DNA of 63,040 nucleotides, the filler included, from Bigelowiella natans CCMP2755 (Eukaryota > Protista > Cercozoa): assembly GCA_000320545.1 (NCBI GenBank). It is 9 parts of 9 records of this genome, joined end to end, with 100 filler letters (N's around TTAATTAATTAA, not from the genome) between each part and the next. Parts side by side here need not be neighbours in the genome. Positions count along the whole stretch, not along the records: positions 18,825 to 23,130 come from ADNK01001894.1; positions 23,231 to 35,422 come from ADNK01000472.1; positions 35,523 to 46,872 come from ADNK01002778.1; positions 46,973 to 51,464 come from ADNK01003585.1; positions 51,565 to 58,151 come from ADNK01001765.1; 4 more parts are not named here. One strand, 5' to 3'. How positions within the stretch are numbered: position 1 is the stretch's first letter; every line of letters starts with the position of its first letter. A model generated the notes under the pieces. The model was not told the DNA's origin, did not search any database, and saw only the letters and a program-made list of their open reading frames with translations. Position numbers and translations under genes: made by a program. Shown here one piece after another: positions 19,995-56,993 of the stretch.

Positions 19995-21335
19995 GAAAAA
20001 CTAGGAGCGGGAAGATAACCTCCCGCGTCCCTTGTTAACTAGTTGCGTATTGTTGCTTCTAGCCCAACTACTCAAGACACAAGCGTGCTTGAGGAAAGAA
20101 ATGATGATGAAATGAGAAGTCGAACAACGAAGAAGAAGGGAATACTAATACCACTACTACTAATAATAATTGAGACCACCAAGCAAGGAGGTGAGACTAG
20201 AGGAGGATACAAGGATTTATGTTTAATAAGCGCGAATGAATCATATAAATGGGCGTTAGCAGTCAAGTTGTTTATTTGGTTCTTCGTTATCGTCGTCGTG
20301 AAATATATCATACGATTACATAGATTCTTGTTCTTTCATCTTGAAAGAATATGTCTTTCCTCCCCCCCCCACCACCACCCCTTTCTCCTTTCTCTACAAA
20401 ATGAACGAAATTCCCACGAAATGCCAGCTCCAGCGTTATAGCCCGATAAGTTAAATTTTCCAATCTTCGGGTTTTTACGGAGCGACGTGTCGTATCCCTC
20501 AACGAAATGAAAGTTGTACATAGTCCAAACCAGCTCGTTTGAATGCGCCTACTGTTTTTTACAAGGCTGCGTTGTGCTGTCTTCTCTTCTGCTACCACTA
20601 CCAATGAAAAACAATGCATTTTTTGCGTCGATCGACCGAATGTCAGCCGGTAATAATCAGTCACGCATCGTCATTTTCAGAAATTATGAAGGTTGCATGC
20701 ATGCATGCATGCATGCATGATGAAAATACGTCATTGTGCGCGGCTGCTGTATTCATTCGTGTGGGTTGCTGCTGTAACAACACAGTTGCATCGCATGCGT
20801 GATCAAGCAGATGTAGTGCGCCATGTCTTATTTGCTAAATCGATCTAGACATCTAGACATGCTAGCGCGCACGCTGCTGGCACTACGTACTAGCTAGCTA
20901 GACTAGCTAGAGCGACGAGCATGCTGTAAACTCATCTACAATAGACATACGTATACATAATATGTACGTACATGTATCGTAACATATGTTATACATGCAA
21001 TACATACTAAGTCTGTGGTATCTCATTTGCTATGTGGTGCAATTTTAGAATTGCATTGCTAGCTAGCTAGATTAGCTGGATTAGCTAATTACTTGATTAA
21101 TGCTATCATTGATCGAACCAACCTCATATGGGAGCGCATACATACACAATGATGAAAAATGACCATTTTTACATGCACATATTGCACAGCATGCTAGTAT
21201 GGCGGGTGATGTGCCAAGCTCTAGAGCTCATTATTTGATGCGACTTCAACTCAGCCACACGGGCACGTGCGTAGGTCCTCACATCGCATGCTGCCCTATG
21301 TCACCCTCTTCCAGCTCGGCATTTGCTTCCAATTA

Positions 21336-22268
21336 TCAGCCTGGCGAGGCATTGTACCGTGAATTGAAAAGCGGCAGATTAGATTCGATTCGGTAGTTCT
21401 GCGCAATGCAAGCCTCTGCTACGAGAAGGAACATGATAGTAAATATGAGACAACGCTGCGCTCTTCCCTTGGGTAGGAGGGAGATAACAACTTTGTCTGA
21501 TACGCCCTGGTACAACATATCCCCTTCGAATGTCAACCCCTTGTATCTGGGGAAGGGGGGGGGGGGAGAAGGAGAACGAAGATAGAATTATAGGCAGTTG
21601 CTGTTGAAGATAACTAGCAAAGCCAACAATAAGGCTTTTTGATAAAGATATGTACATCGCATTATACGAATTTAGGTCCGGTGTGCACATAAATACACGA
21701 AGAAGTATGCAAGTAATCGAATAGGTAAAATTCACCATAATTTATATATATTAGACTAGTAATTCCGATAAAAACATTTATTTGTAATCAACCACCCCGC
21801 CCCCCCCCTCCCCTCCCCTCAAGTACTTTCTAGCCCTTCTGAGCATCCCGACGAGCGTATCCGATATGTCTTGATATGCTGTAAAGAGCTTGCCGAAATT
21901 GACCTAAGAGGGCCACCAATAATTGTAGATAGACCGTGTGAGAGGAATACGCAGTATAAAACGAAGATAAATGAAGAGAAAGAGACTGCACATATATGTG
22001 AAAACCATACACCCCGAGCCTTCCTGGGAAAATACGCATTTAGAGATGCAGAGGCGACGCAAGCGATAACAATCTCATAGGATATCCGAATATACACGCA
22101 CTTGGTGATGGCCTTGTGGACCCTTTGAGCCCTCCCTCTTTATCACCGTTAGCAAGATTCCTAGAAGCAGAGGAGGGAGACGATGACGATGACGACGACG
22201 AGCAGCAGCAGGGATGCAGCAATTAGAATCGATAACAAGCCAAAGGAAACGGCATTTCAAAACACACG

Positions 22269-22307
<39 letters not shown>

Positions 22308-22821
22308 GGAGAGAGGGCGAGAGAGAGAGATATATATGCAAGATCCGAACTACGCCATAAACGAAGAGACTACCGATTTGCTGCTTCACCCACAGCTTGG
22401 CTTTCTCCGCTCTCATTGCGGACTTGGACCCAGGCAGCGCCTTCCCATAACCCTTCTGTCCTTTGTGCAAGACGCTTTTCCTATCAGCCTTCGAGTCGTA
22501 GTGTTTGGAGAAAATGTTATGCTTCATCTCCTCCTTGGCTTTGTTTGCTCGCTTGTTCCACAGGCTGATAATCGCGATTCGCTTCTTCTTCTTGCCGCCT
22601 TTGGTGCCCGCTGTTTTTGGTTGCGGTGCGGGTTTTTGCTGGATAGGCTTCGCTGCCGCTGATGCCTGGTTTGCTTCCTTGACGTCGAGACTTTCTAGAC
22701 CTTTCCCATCCTCGCCACCGCCTAGTGTGGTCGTGAAAACAGATTCCCTACACGTGAGAGGAGTAGCTACGAATTGCTCTACACACACACACACGCACAC
22801 ACAACCAGAGCGAGAGCGAGA

Positions 22822-22869
<48 letters not shown>

Positions 22870-23015
22870 GAGAGCTTGCGCTCACTCTTTTAATGTATAT
22901 TGAGCTAGTCTTCCGTGTTTTCGGCGGGAAAGGCATCAATTTCACCTAGCATGGTATCCTTCTTCACTCCAGCCGTCGAGGAGGAGGAGGACTCCTGCTC
23001 CTCAAAGCGACGTAT
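21336..23015 (-). CDS. ABRA/STARS-like actin-binding protein with C-terminal Costars domain, 5'-partial
   Basis: NIFSKHYD...LHKGQKGYGKALPGSKSAMRAEKAKLWVKQQI|GILLTVIKREG...|VNFGKLFTAYQDISDTLVGMLRRARK|YKGLTFEGDMLYQGVSDKVVISLL matches the ABRA C-terminal and Costars consensus. Confidence 0.88.
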
Positions 23016-23368
23016 CTTCACAAGGAGAACACGAACCAAATAAAGAGAACAGCGCGTCGTTGTCATATCCACACGCAACTCATGCGGACGGACACACATA
23101 TTATATATATAATATATATATATATATATANNNNNNNNNNNNNNNNNNNNNNNNNNNNNNNNNNNNNNNNNNNNTTAATTAATTAANNNNNNNNNNNNNN
23201 NNNNNNNNNNNNNNNNNNNNNNNNNNNNNNAAATGTAGTAGAACGGCCTTTGTTTCTACCACACAACAATTTATCATTACAACTAAATGTAGCGAAATCA
23301 TTATCGATGACGCGAATAGCGACGATCGTGTCAGAGTAAAAAATGCGCTGCTTATTCAAAAAAAAAAC

Positions 23369-23402
<34 letters not shown>

Positions 23403-23829: not shown

Positions 23830-25619
23830 TATTTCAATTAGCGCATCGCAAACGTATAGCCGTCGTGACGACCTCCTCCCCACCCTTTCCTTTTTCTTCC
23901 TCTTCTTCTTCCCCTTCTTCTTCTTCTTCTTTGCCCTCCCCCCCCCCCTCCTCTTTCTCGCTTGACAAGCTTCACGGTAGTTCCTGGTGAGCTCGAGGTC
24001 AAGTTCAACCCAGGGTCCAAGTCACTGTTTGACACCGCCACAGCTCTCGCAAACGAGAAAGGAAATTCCGAGTATGCAGCGTGCAAATATAGTTTACTCC
24101 CCGCACAGAGTTTCCTTGGAGTACATGCATGTATATCCTCCGAGAGACGTGCGAAAACGGCGAAAAACCCACTGATGATGATGATGGTGGTGATGATGAT
24201 GGTGGTGGAATCTAGAGGAGAACTAATTTGCTGGTTTTGGAGAGATTGATCCGCGGTGTAAGAATTATTATTATAAGAAAACTGTTGTTAATTGGAAGAT
24301 TTTGATGACGGTTTTCTATAGAACGGATGATGACAGCGAGGAGGATAGTGATAATGAGCTTAGCAGCACTATCAGCGAGTCGGGGGAGGAAGAAAAGGAT
24401 CGGAGCGACGACGGCGAGGATAGAAAGAAACAGAGGAAGAAAAAGAAGAAGAGAAAGAAGGAAGATCGGTAGGAACAGCTAGAATCATGCAAAAACCAAG
24501 GATAAAGGATACTGAAAGAGGGAGGGGGGGGGGGGGGAAATGTCTTTGATGGTACCGATTCTCTGCTTTCCCTCCTGCAGCATGAGAATCGTGTCTTCTA
24601 GAAGTTGTCATATCATCATCATCCTCATCATCATCATCGTTATCATCACCGTTGTCAGGTCGCACCAACACCCCCTCGTGAGCGCAAACATCACGCAGGC
24701 TGAGATGGAGGAGTTCAGCGTTCGCCAAGCAAAGATTCCGTAGGAAGACCAACCACCACCACCACCACCACGATGACTAAAAACAACAAAACAAGAGACA
24801 ACATAGCAGAGACAACGACAATGATGACGATGATGATGATGATGATGATGGTGATGAAGATGGTGATGATGATGGTGATGATGATGGTGATGATGCAGCA
24901 ATTGCGTATTTACCAACGCGCCCTTGCAAATATCGCTGCCGGTACTTGAATTGCTGATGCTCATGATAGTTGTCTGTCCCCGTGTTCTCATATTCGCCTC
25001 TTCCTCCTTTCTCCTCCTCCTCCTCCACCACCTCCTCCTCTTCCATAGATATTCAAGAATGCAGGCCCTGATGCGAGAGATCCCCACCAGTCGCAAGCAC
25101 GTATTTGAGTACGCCGTCGATTGGACGACGTAAGTAGCAGAAAAGAAGCACCTCTCTCCTCTAATCCATGTTGTGCAGAATAATCTTGAAATTCCGCGCC
25201 ATCGCCAAAGAGCCTTTCTCCGTCGAGAAGCACCTGCGCTCCTTACGATCTATGTTTTGCTGGGTTTTGCTGGGTTCTAGGTACGATAAGTTTCGGACGA
25301 TGATCGAGTTGAATTTAGCGCCGTTCATCGCCGAGAAGGTGAAGGGGGCGCTAGGCCAAGTGGAGCAGTCGATGATTGACTTCATCTTCGAGAAGCTGAC
25401 CGCACATGCGTCACCGCAGGACATGTTTGACAATTTGCAGGGGGTAAGAAAACCGTGCACAAATCGAGCGCCTTCCTTTGTTTCTGCTTTTCTGAACGCA
25501 CACCGAGCTCCTCACGCGTTTATAATATATGCGCGCAGATTCTGGATGAAGATGCGGAAGTGTTTGTCATCAAGTTGTACAGAACCGTGATCTTTGAAGT
25601 GGAGAAGTGCAAGTTGTGA
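23486..25619 (+). CDS. RBM25/Snu71-like splicing factor with C-terminal PWI domain, 5'-partial
   Basis: E/R-rich coiled region followed by IPTSRKHVFEYAVDW...FIAEKVKGALGQVEQSMIDFIFEKL...|ILDEDAEVFVIKLYRTVIFE. Confidence 0.88.
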
Positions 25620-26677
25620 GAGTGTATTTAAGAGCAGTCTCAGCACATGTACGTCCGCCAAGAATCCATACATATATCACCGTGTAACGCCGACGACGTT
25701 GATATTATCGTCGGCACGCACGTGTATTGTCATTTATTATCACAGTGCTAGAGAGGGCACGGTGTGTCACCCCATACTTTGCTAGCTTTAACTAGTTAGG
25801 CTTTAAATATAGTTTTGCTCCACGCTAGCATATATTATAGCTAGATAGCAAGTTGCACATAGAGCGAGCGCGAGCTGTGTATTTATTTTTAGCGAAAATG
25901 TAACTTTGCAAATAGGCTAGAAAGCTGCCTATACACGTCGGGTCTAGCGGATGTCACGTTATCGCACTCGTGCTTGTGTAGCTAGCCAGCATAATAAGCA
26001 CGTACGTCTATCTAGCTATGCTAGCTAGCTAGCTAATTGTAGCGCATTGATGTTCGAATACCGCAAGAGATAAGCATACTGCTGTTATGCAATATTGCAT
26101 AGATCCAGCAGGCTACTAAGCAGCAGAATCAATGAGCTGCGGTATAGCGAGTAGTTGCGCGAGCGCTAGAACGCACTAGGTATCATTAGCACACGTACAT
26201 GTCTGCCACTTAGCAGCGCTGACGCAAACTCTAGAGCTGTTACAGCCTGGATGGGGTTGTGCGCCGTCTTAATGCCCTGTCTCAAGGGCGTGGATGGCCC
26301 GCGATTGACGACACGCACACTCTCTGCATCATGGGCGCGCAACAGGCCTTTAACTTTGCAAAGCTGTCGTTTCATCATTTGAACGATGTTATAATGCAAT
26401 ATCTGCATCAATCAGATTTTGCAATCCATGATTCGCATTGCGGTGCAAGGTCCTATAATTCACTCGCAGTCTCGATACGGCCAGTGAAATCTCATCGTGT
26501 TGTTTCAACTTCCATCCCGATCCATCGTAATAGCTCTTTCTTTTTGCTGAAGATGCTTTTTCCCAACCCCTCCCTCCCGTAGCCTCCCGCCCCCTTCTCC
26601 TCCTCTGTGCCCGTCGTAGAAAAATAAACGAATCACAAGAACACGCACATCCACCCGTTTTCGTATTTCCACACTGC

Positions 26678-30918: not shown

Positions 30919-32503
30919 TCACAAGAATCGGAAAACTCATCCCTCGTTCTTAGCATTAAGCGGCGCTATTATTTGACGGTGCCTTCAAGGAGGGCCCAGG
31001 ACTCTAGGTGCTGCATCTTTTCCTTTCGAACACTGCCTGCACATCGTTATACTGAGCATTGGACGCTTACTTTACCCCCCCCCCACCCTCCTCAGAAATT
31101 CCAGCTATAGTTTATTGCGACTTCTCGAAATGCACTGCCAGGACTTGCTTCCAAAGATCCCACAACCTGCTGGTACTCTCTCTTCTTTGACCTTTGAAAG
31201 CACGCTATCGACACCTTCAACCATCTTCCTTCGCCCTCAGGGTTCAAACTGAATATCTTGGAGATTGCGAGCGACATCGGCGAAGTAACGAAGTTTTTCT
31301 ATTCCCCATTCTGATGACTAGACCGAGACGTGAGATGAGTCCTTCAGTATCCATGCTGCCAAGGATAGTGCATGTATCTTGAATTTGAGGCTTTTCTAAC
31401 TTTTATTCGTGGCACCCCTTCATTCTTTGGAAGATAGTTTGATGATGATGCCTTGCTTCTTCGCTTGAAGAAATGCTTATCCCCCAGTTCTCCCACTGTC
31501 GTATGCCCCCCTTTAGGTGACAGCGTTGGCGCTGCCGTTGGAGCAGTTTTTGCAAAGAATCGACCCCGATGTTCAGATGGTGTGCATCTTATTTTCTCTT
31601 CTATCTCACGAAATCGTTCAAAAGCTGCGTGTCGTAGCCTTGCGCCCCCTCCCCCCCCCCCCCCCCCTGTCCATTAGCCATCCTCTCTCACATGGCAACT
31701 GTTATCACTAATTTTGCCCTCCTTGACAGGTCTGGCAGCCTTCCGAAAGGAGCGCACTTCAAGTTGACCGATTCACCCGCTCGGCCAGGGGGCGGGGGAT
31801 CGCGGTGGGGAGGAAGTCCTCCAGCGTTCGAAAGCCGATAGTTGTGGACACGGCGAAACCGAGGGGGCGGTGGATTCAGAAGGCGCTCTCCCGGATCAAC
31901 GCGCCCCGCAGCCGCGAGGAGCTCTACTCCGTGCTGGTCACCTCCAACTTGATCCAATCTTCCCCTTGGAGGACCTTCGAGGGCCTTCTGGAGGGGGCGC
32001 AGCGCCTCTTGGAGCCTAATGGGCTGCTGGCTATACACGGCTCCTACTCCATTGATGGCGTGGAGAAGCGGTGGTCAGTCGCGCAGTTTAAACAGTGGCT
32101 GTACTCGAAGAATCCCTGCTTCGGTGTGCACGATCTTCGCGACGTCCTGAGTGCTGCAGAGGACTACGGTTTCCGGCATCTCGAGACGCTGACGATACGC
32201 ACGCCTGCAAGTTACTTGCCGTCGATAGTGGAGACCGCGCTCGACGGGGAAACCACCTTCATTTCCCTGCCCAGCGACGACTTCATCATGATCTTATCCA
32301 ATGACTTTGGTCGAAATCCGCATATCAATTTGCCAAATTTTAAGGCCCCCCCCCAGCAGCGATCGAGTCTGGCGCAAGCTATTGTAGACCAGTATGGGCC
32401 GAGGTGGGAGGAGCTGCTCGAAGAGAACTGGGACGACGAGGATGACGACATTGACGGCATATTCCTACACAGAAGGCCTGATGGAGACAGGGGGGGCTTT
32501 TGA
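30919..32503 (+). CDS. DUF938/METTL26-like methyltransferase-fold protein; start uncertain
   Basis: Exons LNILEIASDIGE|...|VWQPSE...NLIQSSPWRTFEGLLEGAQRLLEPNGLLAIHGSYSIDG...FKQWLYSKNPCFGVHDL match the DUF938 pattern. Confidence 0.8.
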
Positions 32504-33289
32504 AATTTTAACCTCCTCTTCATATCGTGCCTATTTCCAATCAACCTCTCGTAAAGCTGTGATAATTGTACAGAAAGCGCGAGAGTGCAGTAGCAAAACG
32601 AATAGTCTTAAGAAATGAGAAGGAATTAATAGTACGCGTCCACCCAAGATCATTCTAATGATGCTCTTGTGGTATATCAGTATCTCAAGCGTAATATTGC
32701 ATTGCACGCACGCACAGCCGGCAAGGTGAAGAAGATTAGATACATAATAAATGTATCTTGTATTATACACATCGAGACTACCAGCAGAGCATGTACGTGA
32801 TTCGCACATTCTTGACTCATTGCGCAATAATTTATCTGGTCATTATCTGCGGGCTACGTCTAAATTTGTGACGTGAATGCCGCTAGCTATGTCCGCGAGC
32901 AGCGCATTGCAACCTGCTGAACGTGCAGGTCAATATATCAGCGCACTCGCTCTGGGACTGGGGAATTGAAGTATTGAAGTCTTTGTGCTTTTTCCATCGC
33001 AAACGCGGCAGTTCCGTTTGGCACATCATATGCTTGTGCACGTATGCATCATTTGAAAAAATGGCTGTCAAGGCAATCATGCTGCGCCATCTAGCTATAT
33101 ACACGAGTGCAGCGACAATTGAAAGAATGTAATCATTTCATCACACCCGCTAGCCCGTCTCACATCGCATGCACGCACAGTATAACAGCTTAAGTTCTAC
33201 CAGCAATGCTAGAACAGGCCGCACATTTTCCCGCGCAAGCACGCAGGCATTTCGAACAAATTCAAGCAAAACGTACGCAATCACGAAGC

Positions 33290-33425
33290 AACATGCATTT
33301 ACTTGCATGAAACACATCATAGCGGAGACCAACAGATTCAAAATTAGCGTTGTAGTCGCTGCATTGCACAGCTACATAAGGATGACTACTGAATAAGTTT
33401 AATTGATTGATTGCATCCGTCTTAC
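33290..33425 (-). repeat. Dispersed repeat family, copy 3
   Basis: Reverse complement reads gacggatgcaatc...gtcatccttatgtagctgtgcaatgcagcgactacaacgctaat...tctgttggtctccgc. Confidence 0.85.
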
Positions 33426-33704
33426 ACAATAACCTAGACAATAGCTGGGAGATACACCGGCTAATATGTTATGTATCATATCGATAATCATCGTCAGCTG
33501 CTGACGGCGTCGATCGTTACTGCGAGCTAGACTGATAGGGGGCTGAATTGCATTGCTGTTTGCGTGTTGGGAGATACAATTCGCTCACATCGATGTGACC
33601 TCTTGCCGATGTGAGTAAGGCAGAGCTTTAATCAACTTCGTATTCGTACATGATTTGAATTAACCTGTAGTAGAGCAGTCGTATTCAGAATATAAACGGG
33701 AAAG

Positions 33705-36342: not shown

Positions 36343-36940
36343 TGTGTGTGCGCGCGCTTGTAACAGCAGCAGTTGTTCAAAGTGCAAACCGGTTTGGAGG
36401 AGAAGGAAACGTCAACGGGCACGTGACGCATAGACTTGAGCATGTCCTGGCATGCAGCTTCCTACGAATTAGGCCGCAGGCAACACAAAGAAAGAACCAT
36501 GCAACTGATGACAAAGCCTTCCCTATATCTACTTATAGCTAATCGCAAGAAGACGTACTAAGTCACAAAATCGAACGCATGAAGTGAGTTTTTACCTCTA
36601 TATCTCTCGCCCGTTCGGCATCAACGAATGAGGGATACCCCTTTCCTATTGCGACGGCATCAACTTGGGTGTGCCTTCGTATAGGGAGCCGTGCATCGCG
36701 GTAACTTTGGCATCCTCCTGGCCGCGTTCTCGAATGTATTGGGGAACGCACTGTAGACCAAACACCCGACCTCGATTGTGCCCCAGCAGACGACGACAAG
36801 GTCTCCCGCTGCGTCGAGAGGAGAACAATTCCCGCAACTGAAAGGACGGCGATAGCGGAAGCTACTATCGCTGAGGATGCTGGACGAGATGTGGGTCTCC
36901 TCCAGCTCTGAAGCCGGAGATCAAGGTCTCGAGTCATCAT
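35670..36940 (-). CDS. Alpha/beta-fold hydrolase with a bipartite (signal + transit-like) leader, 3'-partial
   Basis: GGAPVVLLHGFDSSVLEFRRLVPRL...AIDLIGWGF. The N terminus has hydrophobic AIVASAIAVLSVAGIVLL followed by an S/R-rich segment. Confidence 0.85.
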
Positions 36941-37323
36941 CGATTGTGCAATGGAATATGGGTGGCTCGAGGGGCTACGAGAGGAGCAGTCCAACAAGTT
37001 CTCGTATCGTTCAAAGCATGAATTAAGGTCATTTTCAAGCTTTTCCAGTAACTACCGGTATTTTCTGAAAATCCCCGATTTTAAAATGGGCCGCTCTCTT
37101 TTGCCTGAACATCCAGTGCAACCTGTGGCTTCATTGCAGTTTCCGCCTGCCTTTCCTTCGTCCATGCACGCTGGTGGAAGTCTCGTGTGATTTCTGCCGA
37201 AATGCTTGTGATTTGGCTTATACGACTTGTACAAATCTTTGTCTCAGTTGTCTTAAATAAGGCGGATTCAGAAACAGAGTTTGAAGTGCTTCCCGCGCAT
37301 AGCTTCCCGCCCCCTGCCTTCGA

Positions 37324-39168
37324 ATGTCTGCTTCACTGATGCGGCGCTGGCTTTCGAATGAGTCGACTGCCACTGGTCCTCGCACAGAAACGAACACTAT
37401 GTCCACTGGTAAAGACTCTGAAGCCCAGAAAGAGTGCGGTACACCGGCACCAAACGTTGACCGGCGCAAACGGAAAAGAGAGCAGAGCAATATTGTCTTT
37501 GAGACGCCCGACGCAAGCAAGAATGAAATAGATAGCGCCGCCAGTAAAAAAGGAAAGAAGAAGAAAAAGCCAGCTAGTAGGCGTAAGAAGAGAGGGCGAA
37601 GGGGCAAGCAAAATGTCAAACGTGAGGAATCTAAGACGGATACCAAAGATATCTCAGCGGCCGAAACTGGGCAGGTTTCTGACGTAGGAAAAACTGAGAA
37701 GAAAGCGAATGGACAACCTGGACTCTCTGAGTATGAGCTGCAGAGATTAGAACATATTAAGCGTAACCAAGAGTTCATGCGCCGCCTTGGTCTTCTCGAT
37801 GTTATTGAAGAAAAAAAAGAAAGCAAAGCATCAGCTTCCTCGAAGAGAAAGCCAAAGATTCCACTAGAACCTTCTCGTCGTTCCACACGTTTGAGGGGCA
37901 TCAAACCTGACTACACTGGGGAGAGTATCGATCGCTTTGGCGAAGAATATGACAAAGCTGCAAACAGAGTCAAGGTAATTCCGTGCCATATCTAACACTC
38001 AGTGTAATTTCGCTAACCCATATTTTTTGCATCATCTAATCCTCATCTCATTCTTCAATCAGACTGTTGGAAGAACACCACGGTGGATGTCGACAGAAGA
38101 AGTTCTTACAGATTCAAAAAAATGGCTGGAAGAAAGCCGAGCGGCGCTCCTTAGTTTGCGAACTGCGGAAGGCACTTCACCTCAATCCCATGATGCATGG
38201 CGCGGTGAAGCTGAGAGAAGGTTCTCATCGTGCTACAATTGCTTTTTACGATCCCCATCGACTAGAAATTAAATTTTAATGCACAAATTAGGTGGGGAGA
38301 CAAGATTCCGACCTCTATGGATAGTTGGGAGGACTATGTCAAAAGTCGCATTGCCACGCCACCTCCTCCAAGCTCACTGGATCTTCTCCAAGAATGTAAA
38401 CTAGTTTTCGAGAATTATGTCCTTTTTACTTTGCTGTGTATTGCTGTGTATTTACGGAAGAACCCGTATGTACTTGATTTGTGAGGCTAACTACGTGATT
38501 CATTTGTTAATAAATAGACTATGCACACGACATGTGGCAGCTTTTGGTTTGTTGTACTCTCATGAGCCGAGTGAGCAGTTGGTAATAATTGTGCTAATAC
38601 GAATAGCGATGTCTTTCTTCTTTTGACACCCATGCTGGTTACGCTATCAGGAAAACGAAGCACAACACGATCTCTGCCTTCTTTGCCGCATACCCTACTC
38701 CGAGTTCTGTGTTGGATGCGGAGCCCAACGATGTGCTGAAGATCATCCACCCTCTGGGCTTGTTTCCGACCCGAATGAAATCATTGGTATCTGTGCAGAT
38801 TTTCCGGAATTTCATTTCATTTCATCCCCCTTCCGTGTCTCCCCTCCCCTTCCTACCTCTCCCATTGATGGCTGCTGGCACGGCATTAGGTGTCCGTCAC
38901 CCAGAGGTTTCTGGAGATGCCCAAGTTCGACGTTGGCCTGTCCAAAGATCTCAAAATATACGGAATTGGGGAATTCGGATTTCAATCCTTCCTCCTCTTT
39001 TGCCGGGGAGACATCAGTATAAAGCCAAAAGACAGGGCTCTTTCTTCTTTTGCACACTGGCAGTGCAAATACAAGAAAGAAATGGCTGAGAAAAAAGCCG
39101 CCGATGGTGAAGAGACAGGAAATAAAAATGTGGAAGATGAACAGAGTGATTCATCAGAAGAACACTGA
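37324..39168 (+). CDS. MBD4-like HhH-GPD DNA glycosylase without a recognisable MBD domain
   Basis: Spliced: PPPSSLDLLQE|YYAHDMWQLLVCCTLMSRVSSW|KTKH...FFAAYPTP...IIHPLGLFPTR...|IYGIGEFGFQSFLLFC...PKDRALSSFAHW, paralleling MBD4 LVQE...DPWKLL...PLGL...LHGIGKYGNDSYRIFC...PEDHKL. Confidence 0.88.
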
Positions 39169-39788
39169 TAGGTACCCCATCGTTCTAATCACTGGTTTCT
39201 TAGATCTATTGGTGCTGCTATCCATGTTGCATCGGATTTGAAGTTGCGTGCATTTTAATGTTACTAATGAATTAAGAGGATAAAAGAATGTCCATCAACA
39301 ATAAGAATATACACATTTTTGCGTAAGCACACATGTGGATTCATCAACAATTCATCGCGACGTTATAACGTACATCCATCTCGACTTTCCGGAAACGCAA
39401 AAATAAACCAGCATAGCACGTAGTGTGTTCCATGTCTAGATGTGTCGGCAAGATGGCTTATTGCGCGTGCATCGCACTACGTGTGGCTGGCTGCTATGCG
39501 CAGTGCGACGTACGGCGACTATGAACGCCCTTTGCCTATCTAGCTGTGTGTACGTGCTAGCGTGATGACAGCATATGTGCGCACGTAGCTAGGTAGACTG
39601 CGATATAGCGATAAATATGCCTAAGCTTCAAAAGTATAACATAGATATGATGTAGGTGAACTCAATCATCGTTTATCTCTTACGACATCTGCATATGCGG
39701 GCTTACTACGAATAGAAAATCGCCTCTTTTTAAGAGTTACCAAGACATTATATCTATATATTTCCACGCGAAATGTAACCAGCTAGTG

Positions 39789-40745
39789 CTAGCCATAAGA
39801 TGGTCTCGTTAGAGATAATGAACAGTGTCGGCGTAGACCACCATTATTTCCTCCCTTTTCCTCTGTGTCATTATTGCCTAGGATTCCAGAGACATTCTCA
39901 TGTCGATACTTCATGTTTTCATCAACACGCAGCTTGCTAGGGTGATCCTGCTGAGGAGCTCGCAGGTCTAAAATTCTGATAACAAATTGATATGGTATTA
40001 ACTGATCTTAGGTGAAGGGAGGCTAATCGTATGCACAACCTGTTGAGTACAATAGCGTCTTGGACAATTCCAAACGCAATGAGTATTATCATATGCCAGA
40101 AGTACATGGACCCGCAGGCTACAATCCATGCGCAAGACCAGTAAATGTGAAGCCAAAGGAATATTGCCAGATAACTGATTTTTGGAGATAACGAATACGT
40201 AAGGATGAAGACTGTCGCAGCTCATTTTTAACGGCAATGAACTACCTGTAGAGATAGAACCGCGAGAGTTCTGGAACTTCTCTTATCGTGTTATTTCTAA
40301 TTTCGCGCCAAAAGTAGTAGTAAACCTATAGATATGAAATCCAACTTTATATTTCGAACGTGAGTACGATGCTTTGGGTATCACCATAATGAATACGCTG
40401 ATGACAAAGAGGCTGACGATTGAAGGAGTAGCGAGAGATTTGGTGACGTATTCCGAACAGGTTTCCTAGTCATCGACGAAGTATTCAATTTTATTGGACT
40501 TCAGATTGTAAGAAAATATATCTGGATATTACCGGCTTCCAGTAAAGATAGCATGAGTGCCTGGAAACACGAGAAACCTTCACCACCATCGACGGGATCC
40601 ATATGATCTGTTGTGAAGCAATACGTCAAAAGATTTTCCCTTCTCCCAGCCATCATTAACATAGCACCAAACCGACCGCTAGGGCTAGATCCACTGTGGC
40701 CTTTTGCAGCACCAGCCCCTCGGTTTGACAGGACACTCGGAGCAT
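39789..40745 (-). CDS. Small multi-pass membrane protein of unknown function, about 6 short exons
   Basis: In-frame GT-AG joins: MLRVSCQTEG...DLALA|IIWIPSMVVK...YWKP|ETCSEY...SLFVISVFIM|VYYYFWREIR...YLYS|YLAIFLWLHIYWSCAWIVACG...|ILDLRAP...*. Confidence 0.7.
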
Positions 40746-41021
40746 TCTAGAGGAGGGGAAGCATATTTCAAACGGGATCATTTAAAAAAAGCGAACTTCC
40801 AATCGTAGATCTAGCTGCGAATTTTCCTTTGCGACAAGAAAGAGGCGACCCCAAAATTAATCTGCGACAACCCTCATGTGGCTTATTGTTAGGGAGAAAA
40901 AAAAAGGCGGGCTCCAAATTCAGACATAATTGACAAGATTTACGCACTTTCCCTTCCCCTCCTCGCAAAGACCATCTCCAGCTCTCCCGAATAATAACAC
41001 ATACACCCACACGCACTCACC

Positions 41022-42575
41022 ATGGCAACTTTGAAGGATTTCATGAAGAATAGTGTAGTGGAGTTGAGGAAGAAATGCGAGGAAAAAGGTGGTCGATATA
41101 CCTTCTGACATGCTGTAAAGTGGCTGAAACGCCAAAGGCCCATCACTAAGCTCCGACTCACAAAGTTGCTTCCTTGCAAACGGTAGGCTTAAGTAAGCGT
41201 GGTCTTAAGGCCGAATTGGCCAAGAGACTTCTGGAGGCAGCCCAAGCTGAAGAGCAACAAGCTGAAGAGCAAGGTGTGCACTCAAAACAGCCGCCATTTT
41301 TTACCGATCCCGCAGGGCAAAAAGAAACATCATAGAGGGGATTGGTTGAGTATGGAAGCATTTCTTCGAGTGGATTTGGAACATTTCATCTGCGTATTAA
41401 TGAAGGGGATTCGGAGGTTTGGGCACGAATGTCCCCAGAAAAAGAACATTTTAGTTGGTTGTTTTACGTACGCCGTGAATAATGTATATCATTTGGGCAA
41501 AATCGTTAGCTGTACCCGAAGCTACTGCGGAGCCTGAAGACCCAGTAGCACCCGAAGTTAAGGAAGAGGAAGTTGCTAATGTCATCGAGGATGCAGACAA
41601 CGGAGCGGAGTATGAACTTGCCTCTTAAAACAGACTGATTTGCACTTGATGAGAGAGGGGACAGGGGAGAGGGAATAGTTCAGTAGCAAACATTTGGGAT
41701 TCTTTCTGGGCACCCACTTATTGGTTGGTTGGCTCCTGCAGAGAGGAAGAAAAGGCCTACGAAGAGATGACAGAGGAGGAGAAGATATTAAAAAGGTCAT
41801 TCCATCTCCTCTTCTCCTCCACCCGCTTCTAGAGGCGACTGGGTTTGGACGTTTTGCTGAAAGTATTGTGGTTTCTAGGGCTGAGCGTTTCGGAACAGTA
41901 TCTTCTGATCAAGCAAAATTGAAGATGCGCGCTCTACGCTTTGGGATTCCTGATAAGGACAAGGTCTGGTGCAGCCCAGAGATATTCTACTACTACTCTC
42001 AATATTGACGCACACACTCCATGCTTCTTACAGATTAAAGCAGAGGAGAAAGCGAAGATGGAGGCACGCGCGAAACGATTTGGCCTTGTCATGAGTAGTC
42101 ATCCATACGTTCTGACACAAATATTTGGAATTTTGAGCTCTAAGATCGTTACCTCAACAGGCGACGAGGAGAAAGCAAAATTAGAAGCTCGCGCCAAGAA
42201 ATTTGGATTGACCACAACAGGTGCCTGCCTTTTGTGAATGAAGTTTAGGCACTTACTCCCTTTTCAGTCTATGGTTTGAGCTCTTCTCGCGCTTAATTGT
42301 CTTTATTGTCTTTTCTAGCTGAAGAGCAAGCGAAAATACAAGCACGGATTGAGAGGTTTGGGAAGGTAGATGCTCCTCAGAAGCCGAAGAAGAACAATGC
42401 CGGCAGCGGCAAGATTAATAAATTCTCTCGGAGGAGAGGACGAGGCCGTGGCCGCGGTCGCGGACGAGGTCGGCGTGGTAGGGGTAGAAGAGGAAGAGGC
42501 GGAGCTCGAAGATACCCAAAGCCGACTATGTCAACAGCACTCGCTGCTCCGCGCCGAGGCATGAAAGGAAAGTAG
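41022..42575 (+). CDS. SAP-domain ribonucleoprotein (SARNP/CIP29/Tho1/MOS11 family)
   Basis: SAP motif VVELRKKCEEKG|LSKRGLKAELAKRL, repeated RAERFG/RAKRFG/RAKKFG/RIERFG motifs and an RG-rich tail. Confidence 0.9.
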
Positions 42576-42924
42576 ATCACGAACACTTGTCGGTTCCACT
42601 GGGATCGACGTATGAAGAAGGCTCGTCCGTGTGTGGAGCATAGGAAACTGTATGATGAAACATTGCTGCTGTAGCTTTTGATGCGACGCGTGTGTAGGTG
42701 TTACGCCGGAAGCTAACAATGGCAGGCGACCGGCCCTTCGACGATGCATCCGATGCAATGATGACTCCATTCATGTACAATAATATTTGGAATTCACGAT
42801 GGAGCAAAATCTATTAGAGCATTTCAGTGGCATGAGTTGAGCAATGCGGCTTCTGGGCACGCGAATGAATGTTAATTGGTGCTGCAGCGACGCAACAATA
42901 ACGCGATGGCATCGACACTTTATT

Positions 42925-43010
42925 TACATGGGACGGGTGTAAAAATATGCATTCGAAATTTTGAATCGTCATCCTAATGCAGCTGTGCAAAGTTGCGGCT
43001 ACAGCGTTTT
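42925..43010 (+). repeat. Dispersed repeat family, copy 4
   Basis: catgggacgggtgtaa...gaatcgtcatcctaatgcagctgtgcaaagttgcggctacagcg. Confidence 0.75.
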
Positions 43011-43717
43011 GCTAGCAGCTTTGTTTTGTGTTGACAAAATGCATGCGTATAGCTTCATTATTCATTATTGATGACGCTCATGTACTTCACTATTAGCTAG
43101 TTAGTTTTCTAAAGTTAATCATAGCATGTTGTGATAACGGTCAAGCGGTGCCAGTCGTAGCATGGTTAGATATGCGCGTAGTCTAGTAGTAGTAGATGCT
43201 AGGATGGTAGACTCACAAGCGCATATCTACGGATTCGACGCTCGGGACATGCGCACGTAACTGCACGCAATATGCTAGCATGGCTCATCTAGCATAGCCA
43301 TGTCCGATCCATGGCCTGCCTAGCGGCGCTACATACACACGTAAGCATGATGTATATCCAGGTGTGCCTTGCTGCTTGTATGCTACGACTCTGAACGTGT
43401 AGGCGGCGGCGCTTACAATAAGCCACCAAGCTAGCAAGCTTAGCTTATTAGTCACAGTTGCATGCAGCATTCAATAATGCACTGTTTCGGATATGCGCGC
43501 AGCTGATTCTGATTATTCGAAGTTTTTTCAATTAACCCTTATATATGCAGCCATGCATATGCATCTTTCATTGTTGCAGTAGAACGCTAATTTATTGTCT
43601 TCCCCTCTTGCTTGTGAGGAAAGTGAGTGGCCTAAATAGTCAAAAGATGTTCAACGTTACTTTGCAGATTCACTCCAACATCTGGCGGTGCACGTCGGAA
43701 TTCGTTGAGGCATCAAT

Positions 43718-44338
43718 TCAAGCTACCTCCTTGGCATTTGGAAGATCCCAATTTATCCGCAGCTCTGGGAAAACTCCTGTGAGAGTTAGTCTATCAGCAT
43801 GATATGGAAGGAGGATCTCATCTTTGATATCCCTACCTTCGGACGCTACGCCCCTCTTCGCTAGTTTTGGGTGAATAACTTGGTATATGTCCATCAGCTC
43901 CTTCACACCTGACGGGCGAGGGAGTCAGCGGCAGCAAGATGAATTGCAGGAAACAGTCGGGAAAAGATAGAATCCTGATGATGCGCTTGGCGCTGACGGG
44001 GAGAGCATGCTGCTACTACCTTCGTATGGGTATTTCCCCAGCCATTTTGTGGTCAATTTATTCTCCATTTCCTTCCCTAGCACAAAGATGACGATCAGCA
44101 GATATTAGAGCGTGACGTTGAGAGGAGCGCGCTGCTGGGGTTTTAGGTTGGGAAGCGACGTTCACCGTCGTTAGAATCGGTCGTCTTCTTGATGTTGCTG
44201 TTTGCGGCAGGCTCCTACCTTCTTGCACCGCCTTCTTGATGGCCTCCATCACAGGTTTCGTGCATATCACCTGGGGACCACCATTATCATATACGGAGCC
44301 AATCCCAGGTAAATATCAATCGTGCATGCAGTATATCT

Positions 44339-46545: not shown

Positions 46546-47881
46546 CACACTGTGTGCGAAACAAGGACAACAAATCAACAACCCAGCATATAACACCACC
46601 CTTCAGCGCTCGGAAACAATTAAAAAACGAATCATAAGAGACTGGATGAGGGAGAGGGGGGGGGGGGGGGGGGGGGGAAAAAAGAATCCCTTATTCCTCC
46701 CTCTCAATCGATGCAGAGGGACCATAGCTATTTATAAATAGAAATGTACAGTATATAAGATTTTTGCCTCCCCAAAAGGGGGCAGAAAGGTGGGGTCTGA
46801 ATCGCGAGATATTTCAATCCTGATTAGCTCAGCTGAGTGATGTTAGCGGGCGGGCGAGGAGAGGTCTATTGGNNNNNNNNNNNNNNNNNNNNNNNNNNNN
46901 NNNNNNNNNNNNNNNNTTAATTAATTAANNNNNNNNNNNNNNNNNNNNNNNNNNNNNNNNNNNNNNNNNNNNGAGTAGGACGTCGTAGTGCGAGAGGGGG
47001 GGGGGGGGGGGGGTGCAGCAATATGCGATTTGTAAGTGCGGAGGGATCGATCCGCAGCAAATCCGACGACTGTTAGTACTGCTTATGACAAGTATAAACA
47101 TATATTGCTTTAGGATGAAATGTATATCAAATTATACGATATATTGTGTACATCTATGTATATATGTGTGTAATGTATATACACATATATACTCTAGATA
47201 CTATATAAAAAAGCATACAAGAGAGTGTTTTATACAAATATTTAGATGTTTCCTTAGTCAATTGACTATGGCTTGATGTATCCGTCGATGTCGTCAATTG
47301 ACCGATCTATCAAATTCAATAATAGAGTTATTTTCTATGATCTAAATAAGCACACACAGCAGATCATTGTTACACGTGGCGCGGCTGCATGCATGCATAC
47401 ATAGCACAGTACGTCTATGTCTAACACATACATAAAGTGATGTTGGCCACGTACCTAGATCAATGCAACAGCCTAATGTGGTAGCCGAGATGCATTGCAC
47501 ACTTGCTAGCTTGCTGCATGCATGACCTACACATCTAGCAAAAAGACACGGCAAATTCACACAAAAGTATATAGAAAAGTCTGCGCAATTGAAGAGCGAG
47601 ATCTTGCAACCGCCGGTATATACCGGCGACGTGATATATAACGCTTATATTATGACAGTTGCGCAATGATGTTCGCACTAGAGCTTGCATGTTGCTATAG
47701 TTCAAGGTGCGCCGCTGTGCATGAGGACCAGGAATAATGAATATATTAGAATATATCCTACCGTATTAAGCAATATACATTTAAGCAAATATAACATGCT
47801 GTTATTTCCTCTTCCCTCCTCCTCCTTCTCCTCCTCCTCCTCTTCCTCCTCAATAATCCTCATTCCCGTTCCGCACGTGAC

Positions 47882-51635: not shown

Positions 51636-53209
51636 TCATAATCCGCACTGGGGAACAAAACGCAAACACAACAGATTAAATCGTCCTCTTGCTAACCTTA
51701 GAGCGGAGCAGCCTTCTCCCTCCTCCTCCTCCTCTTTCCCCGCGCACCTGCCACCCCACAGCCTGATATCATCGCAGCTTCCGGAGGCAATCAAACGCCC
51801 GTTAGGCGCCCACGCAACAGAGCACACGAATGACGTATGACCGCGTAACTCGGTGCTCCTTTTGCCGCTCCTGGTGTTCCAAATCCTTACCTTTCGAAAC
51901 GACGAGAAACCAGAGGAATAGTGTGAGAAATCTCATAGATAGGCGACAAGCTGGGAGATATCCCATCGAAACTACTGAAGTTTCCAAGCGGAGAGGGGAG
52001 GGACATCGATAGCTGTCTTGCTCAACGAGGCTCTGGCGGTAGTGTGAGTAGCACTGGCACCGCTGTCCGGCGACATCAACTTGTGCACTGCCCACTACCG
52101 CCAACGGGAGCTGGCCTCCCCAGTAAAAAGCACTCTCGTTGCGCTGGCGCTTGCACTCGGGGCACAGCAAGGCGAGCGCCACATCGCTCGTGTCCGCTTT
52201 GCCAGAGATTTCTATCGATTGACGGTGTGCAGCTAAATACATACATACATACATACATACATGCAATGCATGCAATACATACACATACATACATACATGC
52301 ATACCGCATCGGCGTGCCAGCTTCCCGAGGCAACTTCGCGGCCGGAGGGGGACCAGGATATTGACCACAAAGAGCTAGAGGACGCATCGATGGTACGCTC
52401 CAGCGTGTACATGTTCTCCGCCCCCCTCTTCCAGATGTGGATTGACTCTTCCTTGGCCCCTGTCGCCAGGAACTTGCTGTCCGGTGACCATTGCACCGAG
52501 CGTACGACGCGGGAGTGCTGCAGGGTGGCCAAAAGTCTGTACCCCTCGGCGACGAGGTGGAGATTCACGGTCTTGTTGTCGCAGCCCGTTCCTGCGTGCG
52601 GCACAGCCGGAATTGTTCATAATCGGTGGTGATGATGATGACGATGATGATGATGGTGATGATGACGATGATGATGTGATTAGCATTGGAAAACAGCTGT
52701 CAGCAGAGTTTTTTTTTCGAAACATCTGGACAGGTAAGCTTTAATTTTTGTGCGTTTCGCTGGGCATCCCTGGCCCCTCTTTTTGCTGTGTCTAGTTTGC
52801 CTTGCAAGATGCATAACGAGGAGAGTTCAAAAGAAGAGCGGAGGGGGGAAGGGGGCCAGGAAAGCACATCATGCTACCTAGCGTACTGCCATCGGGGGAC
52901 CACGCCACCTGATTGAAGAATGAATTATCATCATAGAGTAAATTAATCACATCTCAACGGCAATCTGCTGACACACGAACTTGTGTTCTTTCTGGTGCTG
53001 TTCCTGCTATACATGGTAATAATACGTTTCTATTACCGCGTTGACTCCTTGAGAGTGGTGAAGTACACACTCCAGCTTGAAGTTTCGAAGGGCGTTCCAA
53101 ATATGGACAGTTCTATCGCACCAATATTTGCCCATAGGCTATATCACTTCGTGGTGATCGCTTATCGTGCGTACCATCCTCGTTTTATACCATTCACCAA
53201 ACAAGGGAG

Positions 53210-53259: not shown

Positions 53260-53698
53260 AGGCACCTGTCCTCGCTAGCAGACGCTAACTTGGTTCCATC
53301 TGGCGACCAAGCTACAGCATGGACTGCCCCGGTGTGCACATCGAGTACCAGCGGCTGTTCGAAGAAAAGAATAGGAAACAACTCAATGTATGTAGACGAG
53401 GAAGGCGAGAGGAGAAAAATAAAAGTATGCGGGCCATCCCCCTCCATACCAAAGCTGGATCGGTTGAATGGGAACCTAGATAGTAGCACGATTTCTTCTT
53501 GTATATGACTGTCACCTTCTTTCCGAACGGCGCCCAGTTTATCTCCATGCAGTCTCGAATAATCTTCACTAAGGGGGAAGGTAGCTCTGTGAAACAAGCG
53601 CACAGCTCCATGGCTTTGTCGATATGCCGCTTCATGCTGGTCTTTTCTCCTCCTCCTCCACCTCCTACGTTGTCGTCCTGTGTATGTTTGTCGTCCAT
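51636..53698 (-). CDS. WD40-repeat protein with a possible N-terminal F-box-like motif; ends approximate
   Basis: HTGAVHAVAWSPDGTKLASASED, VRSVQWSPDSKFLATGAKEESIHIW, SVAWAPNGRLIASGSCD; N-terminal LPSPLVKIIRDC. Confidence 0.88.
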
Positions 53699-54772
53699 TC
53701 GTTTCCCGACGGGCCTTGCCTGGTAGAGTTGCTTCCAACGAACGAATCTCCGTGGAATGCTGTGCATGATTGGCAAATGTAAATAAGAACCTCGTAGAGT
53801 GGATCCGAATAGGAAGGGAGAAGGAAACAGACGATGATTTCCCGTTTGAAAAATTAGTCAACATTGCCATGACCATCGCTGACGGCCATTGAACGGGATT
53901 CAAAACCGAAAGATTTGGCTCTCTACGGAAGTAAATTCCGGCTCACAAAACGTCTACTCAGTGAACCTCGCATCCATGATACATTCGAAAGGGGTGAGAA
54001 GTTGTTGTTCCTGCACGTACGTTGGGGGAAAGCAGCCACTAAACCTTTCGGGTCGATATTTAGAGCTAGGTCGATAAAAAATATCAACCTTTGCTAAAAA
54101 TCCAGTCCTTTTTCACATAATAATATTCATTTTCCGTTGTCTCCTCCTAGAGAAGCCGAAGATGAACAAAGAGTTTCCCGGAAAAGCTACCATGAACAAA
54201 TGGCATCAGTTACCGGATATGTAAGCACGTGTGTGTTGGCTTCAGAAGTTTGTCGCAGTAAAAATGGATAGGGTTCTTCAGTGACGACATCTCACTGTTG
54301 CGATTTATGACGAAAATTGGACAAAGCCTTAGGCATTTAAGCGCGATTCGAGCTTGAATGCATGTAAAGAGTAGTGGTTCATCAATTGATCTCGTTCAAA
54401 AAAACTGGCGGGAAATTAAAATTTCAAAAAAAATGCAAAAAAAATATGTTGAACATCCACCTCGCTTCCGTCCATGATGTTTTTTTCAAACGACAACCAG
54501 GGAATCCGAGAGTTTACAAAAATCTCGGAACTTTCTCAGACTTTTCTCTGCTCCCCAGGTTTCAATCGCGAATCCGCTCTCGACCTTGTCGCAGCATGAA
54601 AATCTAGACGATTCTTTCTGTTCTGTGCGGCAGCCGCTGCATCACTCGGATCGCGTGCTACTGCACCTCACAATCCGCACCCATTCACAACCACCCCTAA
54701 CACCAGTACCACCATTTATATCCCCCCCAACACCAGTACACCAGTACAAAGCTAAGGATCCAGACCAAGACC

Positions 54773-56131
54773 ATGAAGAGACGAGGACCACAGTTACCCT
54801 CGTCACAGCTATCCTTCCGTGATGTCGTCAGGCGCGGTAAAATTGCAGAACCTAGAAAGAAAAACGAGGGTAAAGATGATACGATTAGGCTACGCAAGGT
54901 GGAACCCCTCCAACAGCTGGGATTTTTCCGGCGCATAACCACGGACATGGTTGTCACGGCGGTGGAAAATGTGCTGCAGCCAGTACTACATGACTCCCAG
55001 AATATCGCCAAGATAGTAGGATTATACGTGGATCTTACAATTTATGACGCGTTTGAACTCATCGAATGGTTGATTGGACTCCGAGAGCGCCGGATTAGAT
55101 ATAAGAGATGTAGGATAACACACGAATACGAAGTCGTTATGCAAAACACACTGCGGATAGGAGGAGGAGGAGGAGGAGGAGGAGGAGGAGGACTAGTTTA
55201 TTCAGTCGCCGAGGAGAAGGGAGGAATCAAGGAAAGCAAAACAGTTGATAAAATGTTCATAACCTTGAAGAGGGAACTAGAATCCGCTAAATTGGCAGGA
55301 GATGATTTACAAAGAGACGAGGAAAGGAGACTAGGGCTGGTCTTGCCGATTCTATTTAAAATTACGCAAATTACCAAAAATATACGAATAAAGAGAGGAA
55401 GGGCAGAGCAGGGACCCATCTCACGAATCCCCCCCGGCATTCGTCTATTGAAGAACCTCTCAGTCCTCTCTCTGAAAGACACTGCAATTCAGGAAATCCC
55501 GAACGAAATCGGAGAACTCCGCCAGCTGAAGAAATTAGCTGTCGATGGTGGGAAGCTGCAGTGTGTCCCGCGAGAGATTGCTTTTCTAAAGGAGTCTCTA
55601 ACGCAGCTCTCATTCAGTCGCAACTCCTTCCAAGGAATTCCCCACACGTTAAGGGCTCTCAAGAACTTAAAAGAGCTCTCCATGCGAAAGAATAGGGTTC
55701 GTGAAATCCCCCCATGGATTTGGGAGGACCTAGAAGAGCTCGAGGGCTTAGACGTCTCAAATTGCCTCATTGATGAGCTCCCTGCCTCCCTTTCCAGGCT
55801 GAAATGGCTCAGGGTGATCAACGCGAGCAACAATCTTATTTACAAGATCCCAGAGAGTCTAGCCGACTCGAACTTAAAGTATTTAAATCTCATGAATTGC
55901 AAGATCGACAGATTCTCTGTGCCTGAGAAGGTCGTCCGTGCTGCACAGGCATCCGTTGATGCGGGTTTTGTGGTGAAGAATGTCCCTCCCAAAGGAAGAA
56001 TGAATCTGTACCTTTACGGAAATGCCGGGTTCTATCCGCTCCTGAGGTTGTTTGGATCGTGTGTCGATGGCACTATAGTACAGATCCATTCTGCATTGAA
56101 CCACCAGGCAAGAGGTGCATCTGCATTCTAA
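54773..56131 (+). CDS. Leucine-rich repeat protein, intronless, 452 aa
   Basis: Repeated LxxLxxLxLxxNxLxxIP units (LKNLSVLSLKDTAIQEIP, LKNLKELSMRKNRVREIP, LRVINASNNLIYKIP). Confidence 0.9.
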   Translation: MKRRGPQLPSSQLSFRDVVRRGKIAEPRKKNEGKDDTIRLRKVEPLQQLGFFRRITTDMVVTAVENVLQPVLHDSQNIAKIVGLYVDLTIYDAFELIEWLIGLRERRIRYKRCRITHEYEVVMQNTLRIGGGGGGGGGGGLVYSVAEEKGGIKESKTVDKMFITLKRELESAKLAGDDLQRDEERRLGLVLPILFKITQITKNIRIKRGRAEQGPISRIPPGIRLLKNLSVLSLKDTAIQEIPNEIGELRQLKKLAVDGGKLQCVPREIAFLKESLTQLSFSRNSFQGIPHTLRALKNLKELSMRKNRVREIPPWIWEDLEELEGLDVSNCLIDELPASLSRLKWLRVINASNNLIYKIPESLADSNLKYLNLMNCKIDRFSVPEKVVRAAQASVDAGFVVKNVPPKGRMNLYLYGNAGFYPLLRLFGSCVDGTIVQIHSALNHQARGASAF

Positions 56132-56204
56132 AAGTGGCCACAACGAGTGTGTGCAGCGGCGTTACGCGGCGTTGACGAATCGATAATGCCGGTTTTATAT
56201 ACAG

Positions 56205-56285
56205 GGATGTGCCATGAGACGGATGGCAACGAAATAAGTTATTACATTTTTCAATTGTTATCCTAATTATAATTTAGCTAAGCAG
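56205..56285 (+). repeat. Dispersed repeat family, degenerate copy 5
   Basis: catgagacggatggcaacg...catttttcaattgttatcctaat. Confidence 0.6.
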
Positions 56286-56993
56286 TGATGTGTTATGTGT
56301 GTCTAAACGTAATATGAAGCACTGTGCAACGAATAGGGCGCGTACACGCGCTGTCTAGCTAGCTAGCTGTGGCGAATGCCAGTCGCACGCGGCATGATTT
56401 GCACGCTCGCGCAGAACTGTTTGCATGAGATCCATCTAGTCCATGCCAATTGCTCACGTCATCATCACGTCCGATGGCACTAGGTGCATGTGAGCATTGT
56501 TGCATTAATTGTTGGAATGAATGGAACGAAATGCGTTGCTTGTGCGATGGCCTCTATCTAGGGCCTGGCCATGCATGATGATTCCTTGCATCTTTAAGGC
56601 ATGCACACATCTGGACAATCACGGCGTACATTATGAAATGGAACACACGTTCTTGCATGAACCTTGACCGTCTAAGCGGTGTCTCCAACGTTGTATGCTC
56701 GTACGATGGCTATGCTGAGAAGGGAGCGAACCGTTTTCCCCCCTCTCCACACTACTTCTCCTATTATACGTCAAATCAAAAGTCGTCAAAGTTATCATCG
56801 AGCTGGGTTGTCCTCAGCTCTGAACATTGAGCGAGAAACTTATGCAAACATCCAATGGCGGTGCATGTAGTATTAACTGACACAGTTTACACACAGCGCA
56901 GGTTCAAAAACCACTATCGATGCTGTTGCTGCTGGACTTTGTCCGCGACTCAAAACAATTATTCACAGGTGCTCCACATCCATTCTACCAGAC

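Follow-up and report, generated by a model that had tools for sequence, protein, structure and literature searches.

Background

In fungal repeat-induced point mutation (RIP), a mutator scars repeats at one dinucleotide and may also reach their flanks. Yeast Ty5, Dictyostelium TRE and the long interspersed nuclear elements (LINEs) of the Tx1 clade are safe-harbour or targeted elements, whose copies are concentrated in one harmless class of site. Both kinds of system bear on the subject of this report, a set of short sequence islands rich in CTAG and related tetramers, found behind gene 3' ends in a 63,040-nucleotide stretch of the genome of the cercozoan Bigelowiella natans (hereafter the window). 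The window is intron-rich eukaryotic DNA; its open reading frame (ORF) 31727-32503 is 100% identical to a B. natans (Bigna1) gene model and 60% identical to an Amorphochlora protein.

The closest described process comes from the same species. As set out in the main text of a preprint (10.64898/2026.01.13.699255), a B. natans mutator changes T/A to C/G at TpA and nowhere else, accounting for 231 of the 302 mutations seen in two viral regions, and the genome holds TpA-poor reverse transcriptase (RT) genes and an ADAT2 candidate; how the mutator is aimed, and by which enzyme it works, are left open there. The footprint described below is alike in species, in the change of TA to CA or TG on both strands and in being strongest in RT-coding relics. 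It differs in scale and detail: the published main text concerns large viral insertions and clusters of at least 3 kb, whereas the tracts seen here are gene spacers of 0.3-2 kb, in which TAG/CTA is largely spared and the effect is graded. RIP, which the preprint also cites, works in the opposite sense, making TA from CA, while the B. natans process removes TA.

In Leishmania and Trypanosoma, base J has been reported to be enriched at the start and stop sites of RNA polymerase II (PMC4150806). Kinetoplastid base J at convergent strand-switch regions resembles the islands in its position behind converging transcription; the islands differ in flanking monocistronic genes and in occupying tandem spacers too. 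The LINE found in the islands is like the safe-harbour elements in its site class and unlike them in having no fixed target sequence at the six junctions aligned, where by eye no tail was seen either. A literature search, which covered few subscription papers, turned up no account of islands of this kind in 3' spacers, nor of any site preference for this LINE.

Islands behind gene 3' ends

A sequence-only reading of the window had placed nine tracts rich in CTAG, CATG, TGCA, GCGC and TACGTA at gene 3' ends and in convergent intergenic regions. All nine are present, at 2240-2650, 12870-13330, 20690-21250, 25780-26240, 32690-33540, 39400-39800, 42830-43500, 47370-47700 and 56320-56630 (named below by their first coordinate). 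Sixteen spacers were scored by the best 250-bp count of these five motifs, four further junctions lying in assembly gaps. Peaks reach 9-30 in the convergent spacers, all nine of which carry an island, and 17 and 23 in the two tandem spacers, which also both carry one; the five divergent spacers peak at 3-6 and carry none. The contrast between convergent (9/9) and divergent (0/5) spacers gives a Fisher p of 0.0005, under a threshold chosen after the data had been seen. Genic tiles (n = 160) average 3.4, with a maximum of 11. The 13 top peaks of the window all fall within island spacers, followed by an intronic (ATAC)n peak that also scores 13. With its score of 9, island 39400, the weakest, is not separable by motif score alone, because the genic maximum is 11 and an intronic sliding window reaches 13.

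The islands are thus a real feature of gene ends. Sorting the spacers by orientation, as the sequence-only reading had proposed, upholds its view that islands lie at or just past the 3' ends of convergent genes and that divergent regions lack them. Convergence itself is not specific, and the rule becomes "behind a 3' end", because both tandem spacers carry islands too. These two, at about 4850-5600 and 16050-16600, had been overlooked, and in both the CTAG-rich part lies on the side of the upstream gene's 3' end; for the first, that gene is at 5839-7030 on the minus strand. In a poorly annotated lineage, the islands offer a marker of gene ends that needs sequence only.

Gene orientation was established by several means. 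Stranded RNA (run X21; 329 reads, piling at 3' ends) supports junctions within 36400-44330 and gives the orientation at two islands. Around island 39400, between an HhH-GPD glycosylase-like gene (+) and a minus-strand gene, plus reads cover 39050-39314 and minus reads 39580-40109, so that the island partly overlaps the 3' end reads of the latter. Around island 42830, between a Tho1/SARNP-like gene (+) and a cyclase gene (-), plus reads cover 42495-43024 and minus reads 43290-44084, with almost none in 43025-43289, the island's centre; a wild-transcript contig terminates at 42750. These pile-ups place both islands at and between converging 3' ends. Pfam matches on both sides orient island 25780, between a PWI gene (+; match only at E 0.0024) and a triple-RRM gene (-). 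A Pfam match on one side was combined with hand reading for island 20690, between a hand-read plus-strand gene and a Costars-domain gene (-); for 32690, between a DUF938 gene (+) and a hand-read minus-strand gene; for 47370, behind a formin (FH2) gene (-), whose putative left neighbour amounts to about 20 codons after a gap; and for 56320, between an LRR gene (+) and a hand-read minus-strand gene. Islands 2240 and 12870 were oriented by hand reading alone.

The hand-read exons have weak backing from a small coding model, which put its top window on the assumed strand in 7/8 leave-one-out tests and agreed with the hand reading in 7 of 10 uncertain stretches (disagreeing at G2, G12 and G21b, with G17 near zero). 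Scoring of splice sites by strand was uninformative for orientation, and no homologue was found for the exon on the left of island 20690. As hand-read, gene strands alternate almost throughout 8000-63040; the only two tandem spacers scored both lie before 17 kb, and both are TA-erased.

Composition of the islands

Pooled over the nine tracts (4,449 bp), CTAG, CATG, TGCA, GCGC, AGCT and ACGT stand in two- to fourfold excess over base-shuffles of the same tracts, with counts of 67 against 17.2 for CTAG, 68 against 17.4 for CATG, 77 against 17.4 for TGCA, 36 against 11.6 for GCGC and 50 against 17.3 for AGCT. The CTAG excess persists against trinucleotide shuffles (67 versus 45.3, z 5.3). The five divergent regions used for comparison (4,612 bp) show no such motif excess. 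TACGTA, also among the motifs first listed, is marginal (4 versus 1.3-1.5). Palindromy, which had been taken as the defining trait, does not hold: seven of the 13 palindromic tetramers tested (GTAC, GATC, TCGA, CCGG, GGCC, AATT and TTAA) are not enriched, and the non-palindromic GCTA and ATGC are enriched equally. The palindromic character is a side effect of an underlying composition.

This composition combines a normal GC content (0.45) with a GpC rho of 1.93, CC/GG of 0.50 and GA/TC of 0.72. Purines and pyrimidines alternate more often in islands (0.62) than in divergent spacers (0.44), and runs of four purines occur at about a quarter of the divergent-spacer rate. Decay through CpG methylation was rejected, since CpG is undepleted (islands have a rho of 1.01, divergent regions one of 0.98). 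Period-4 repeats exceed trinucleotide shuffles (55 versus 4.1). Broadly drawn islands (7,782 bp) contain no homopolymer or dinucleotide runs, of which the remaining 54,554 bp have 49 and 88, whereas (ATGC)n and (AGCT)n occur 7 and 4 times in islands and once each in the rest of the window; this contrast is partly one of island versus intron, because most outside runs are intronic. In island 20690, for example, an (ATGC)n run spans 20694-20719, and (AGCT)n occurs twice, at 20890 and at 21058. An intronic (ATAC)n at 52237-52298 contains ATGC variants, in which a change of TA to TG converts the microsatellite unit into the island unit. A scan for bacterial promoters and terminators stayed at chance level and is irrelevant to this DNA.

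LINE copies in the islands

The expectation that the islands collect repeats is supported by the 3' ends of a LINE family. A relic of its ORF2 lies at 542-2133 on the minus strand, with an internal deletion and 71-73% identity to intact P0001; island 2240 adjoins it. The relic's 3' end recurs at 33321, 42949, 2350 and 2205, with E values from 4e-29 to 4.5e-4; the best E in 20 shuffled windows was 0.12, although two of the five ends had trained the model. The five ends are spread over three convergent spacers, with three ends nested together in a single spacer. Island 32690 contains a 5'-truncated copy (33274-33430, +) that retains the last ORF2 codons and a short 3' untranslated region (UTR), island 42830 contains a minus-strand end (42925-43041) with more copies elsewhere in the genome, and the two older ends by the relic lie at 2205-2251 (+) and 2350-2439 (-). 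No LINE 3' end was found in introns or promoters of the window. A candidate beside island 56320 (56214-56287; E 0.17 at 56244) falls below significance against the shuffled-window best of 0.12. According to DNA contigs, 42964-43006 has additional copies in the genome, as does a second, dispersed repeat near 39325-39448, beside island 39400.

A metagenome scan yielded two LINE loci, L001 and L002 (30% identity); viral contigs gave one chance match (L003) and then none, and prokaryote genomes gave none. L001 is a full-length LINE with ORF1 and an ORF2 that carries endonuclease (PF14529) and RT (PF00078) domains above the cut-off. It is 76-91% identical to Bigna1 relic models and 66% identical in DNA to the relic of the window. 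L001 abuts a (TAGC)n island: the 192-bp flank at its 3' end contains 11 CTAG as well as three runs of (AGCT)n. Copies truncated at the 5' end with a common 3' end, a trait of retrotransposons without long terminal repeats that use an APE endonuclease, are seen in this family. No target-site duplication or simple tail was visible by eye, the copies being old and mutated. A sequence-specific LINE of Tx1/R1 type was rejected, as the 3' flanks of six aligned copies differ. From this window, targeting of the LINE and its retention are indistinguishable.

Footprint of the TpA mutator

Three tracts of the window are almost free of TA (540-2130, 4000-4800 and 15650-16760; TA rho 0.06-0.12, CA/TG 1.5-1.75), and all three lie within island-bearing spacers. 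A distinct mutational regime had been suggested for the islands; TpA erasure in some island spacers agrees with this, but most islands are not TA-poor. In the LINE relic, 11 of 13 tyrosines of intact P0001 are now His (6) or Cys (5), and both strands have been mutated (T>C and A>G), with 172 CA and 160 TG on its coding strand. RIP was rejected as the agent, since the relics change in the direction opposite to CpA>TpA and CA/TG is raised in islands.

The TA that survives is not a random sample. Across five tracts it comprises 30 CTAG, 13 TAG/CTA half-sites and 5 others, against 11, 77 and 156 in divergent spacers. CTAG holds 19 of the 22 TA in the CTAG-rich island 4850-5600 of tandem spacer 3850-5700, and 7 of 9 in tandem spacer 15650-16760; TpA is partly erased at 13020-13330 in island 12870. 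Within the LINE ORF relic, all five survivors (660-2130) are half-sites, whereas unmutated L001 has 31 half-sites and 89 others; the skew pooled over three tracts gives p 0.008. The mutator largely spares A followed by G. With both strands exposed, only CTAG is fully safe, and CTAG survives. A preference for TA[A/C/T] over TAG would serve as an enzyme fingerprint.

In L001, mutable TA falls about 20-fold towards the CTAG flank, the successive values being 43, 38, 13 and 2 per kb. The sparing of TAG/CTA and the LINE gradient go beyond the main text of 10.64898/2026.01.13.699255, which makes no mention of CTAG or of a trinucleotide analysis; TpA hypermutation itself is already published there. 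Despite the TA-depleted 3' kilobase, ORF2 of L001 (1465-4944) is open over 1160 codons. Partly mutated LINEs may still be translated, because TA>CA/TG creates no stop codons.

Origin of the islands

All statistics given here come from the window and one outside locus, L001. The preferred explanation, held at a little less than an even chance, is that the islands are promoter-free 3' spacers that retain transposable elements (TEs) and are exposed to the mutator. Its first parts are those seen in the window: islands behind 3' ends and away from promoters, LINE 3' ends and other short repeats within them, and, in some spacers, a footprint of the published mutator that turns TA into CA or TG on both strands and largely spares A before G. 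Such spacers would likely be small silenced domains tolerating insertions, in which the mutator may be active in bouts. TEs and silent genes of B. natans carry H3K9me3 together with H3K27me3 (10.1101/2025.03.17.643675; public ChIP-seq exists), which makes small silent domains at the islands plausible. Each bout would destroy (TA)n and convert TA-rich DNA into CATG/TGCA mosaics; slippage may then expand the mutator-proof units (ATGC)n and (AGCT)n, and AT-biased drift between bouts would restore TA, producing older, TA-normal islands. In the weakest step, the surplus of CTAG and the scarcity of purine runs would need a further source, most likely CTAG-rich repeat relics or else another process, of transversion type, acting on spacer DNA that goes unrepaired. 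Were the link to ordinary 3' spacers true, the mutator would act beside most genes, beyond large viral insertions.

Simulations match this explanation in part. Run on intronic and UTR sequence, a simulated mutator makes CATG and TGCA as frequent as in islands, without yielding CTAG, AGCT or purine-run loss, and slight drift applied to the TA-free island 4850-5600 raises its resemblance to other islands from r 0.40 to 0.69. Several observations weigh against it. TA is not scarce in seven of the nine named islands, where its rho is 0.85-1.58 (1.06 for all nine pooled), low values being confined to 12870 (0.41) and 56320 (0.66), and recognisable LINE pieces form a minor part of three islands and are absent from 20690, 25780, 39400 and 47370. 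The sparing of TAG/CTA is not absolute, and the gradient in L001 could be an assembly chimera that joins short, mutated copies to a long, intact one. Among 24 equilibrium models compared with the 136-tetramer spectrum (toy models, one seed each), none exceeds 6 CTAG per kb, against the 16.5 observed, and the mutator alone gives r 0.39 or less. Transitions cannot lift purine-pyrimidine alternation from 0.44 to 0.62. Among the 66 substitutions in LINE pieces within islands, which are non-independent, neither CC nor TC is lost preferentially, and GC is not protected. Neither the excess of CTAG nor the purine-run loss is accounted for by the mutator, which is part of the story and not all of it, because CTAG is unreproduced and seven of nine islands are not TA-poor. 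Simulations of template switching and slippage did not reproduce the spectrum and were rejected.

A selected cis-signal is rather unlikely. CTAG clusters (mostly GCTAGA/GCTAGC) behind every gene would here be protein-binding sites or bear a mark on a base, and would stop RNA polymerase II, form a boundary or seed silencing; the LINE and the mutator would be attracted to them secondarily. An island is present in every scored 3' spacer, with or without a recognisable TE; CTAG lies above trinucleotide expectation, is biased in its flanks (three hexamer classes account for 67 of 92) and is reproduced by no neutral model, and the TA loss of L001 weakens away from the island. The islands nevertheless contain no oriented motif or strand asymmetry, no nucleosome-type 10-bp period and no Rfam match, and their single-stranded folding hardly exceeds what composition gives (of 11 island windows, 10 fold within z -2 of their dinucleotide shuffles). 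CTAG density also differs strongly among islands, and the survival of CTAG in TA-free tracts is explained by enzyme context, because half-sites persist inside the LINE ORF as well.

A plain graveyard, in which decayed CTAG-rich repeat families and LINE ends are kept where harmless and no ongoing regime is needed, is unlikely; if the islands were only such tolerated junk, their interest would be modest. Short stretches of similarity beyond tetramer content do link islands (4639-4701 with about 43320-43383, z 14.9; 38 shared 12-mers against 15), the repeat at 39325-39448 recurs in the genome, and the two tandem tracts have common short words in the same order. These tracts do not align end to end, however, no long homology connects the islands, and most of the sequence of islands 39400 and 42830 is single-copy at 90% identity. 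Introns, moreover, tolerate long microsatellites yet lack such relics.

It is doubtful that the elements combine into a mutator-proof, CTAG-coded tag behind every gene end, which would seed a silent domain, stop read-through, attract the LINE and load an adenine-deaminating DNA mutator that spreads about 1 kb into any inserted sequence. Such a tag would amount to a genome-wide, gene-by-gene trap for mobile DNA.

Damage bias is improbable. It supposes that spacers without transcription-coupled repair lose G in GG/GA (C after pyrimidine) through oxidation or abasic-site transversions, and the best-fitting models (r 0.68-0.80, with correct alternation) do require transversions at C after pyrimidine. 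These models leave CTAG at 2-4 per kb, the pattern is missing from divergent spacers, which are likewise not part of genes, no bias of this kind is seen in the LINE-piece substitutions, and the published background is transition-rich, with a transition-to-transversion ratio of 7 (10.64898/2026.01.13.699255). A base J-like thymine modification marking termination domains, the parallel first drawn for the islands, is very improbable, as it agrees in position only, no supporting evidence was found, the islands flank single intron-rich, spliced genes with separate 3' pile-ups and not the ends of polycistronic units, and the literature found on base J does not mention Bigelowiella, no search for J enzymes having been made.

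Other features of the window

The Costars/ABRA-like gene beside island 20690 (21339-22881, minus strand) had not been named by the sequence-only reading. The gene at 37325-39168, which matches HhH-GPD weakly (E 0.0009) and encodes a long, basic N-terminus, is presumably MBD4-like. The product could act on mismatched or deaminated bases; its siting beside an island is probably chance.

Two inverted repeats were also observed. The first, at 18825-19288, has 215-bp arms that are 86% complementary, a 34-bp loop and a folding z of -39; it is a hairpin-RNA locus, a foldback element or an assembly artefact by the gap. The second, at 10590-10945, has 104-bp arms, likewise 86% complementary, and lies within a gene region. 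In introns (e.g., 24520-24900 and 21550-21830), mutually complementary tracts are common by eye, including G-runs with C-runs, (GA)n with (CT)n and (GAT)n with (ATC)n. Such tracts could pair, drawing splice sites together.

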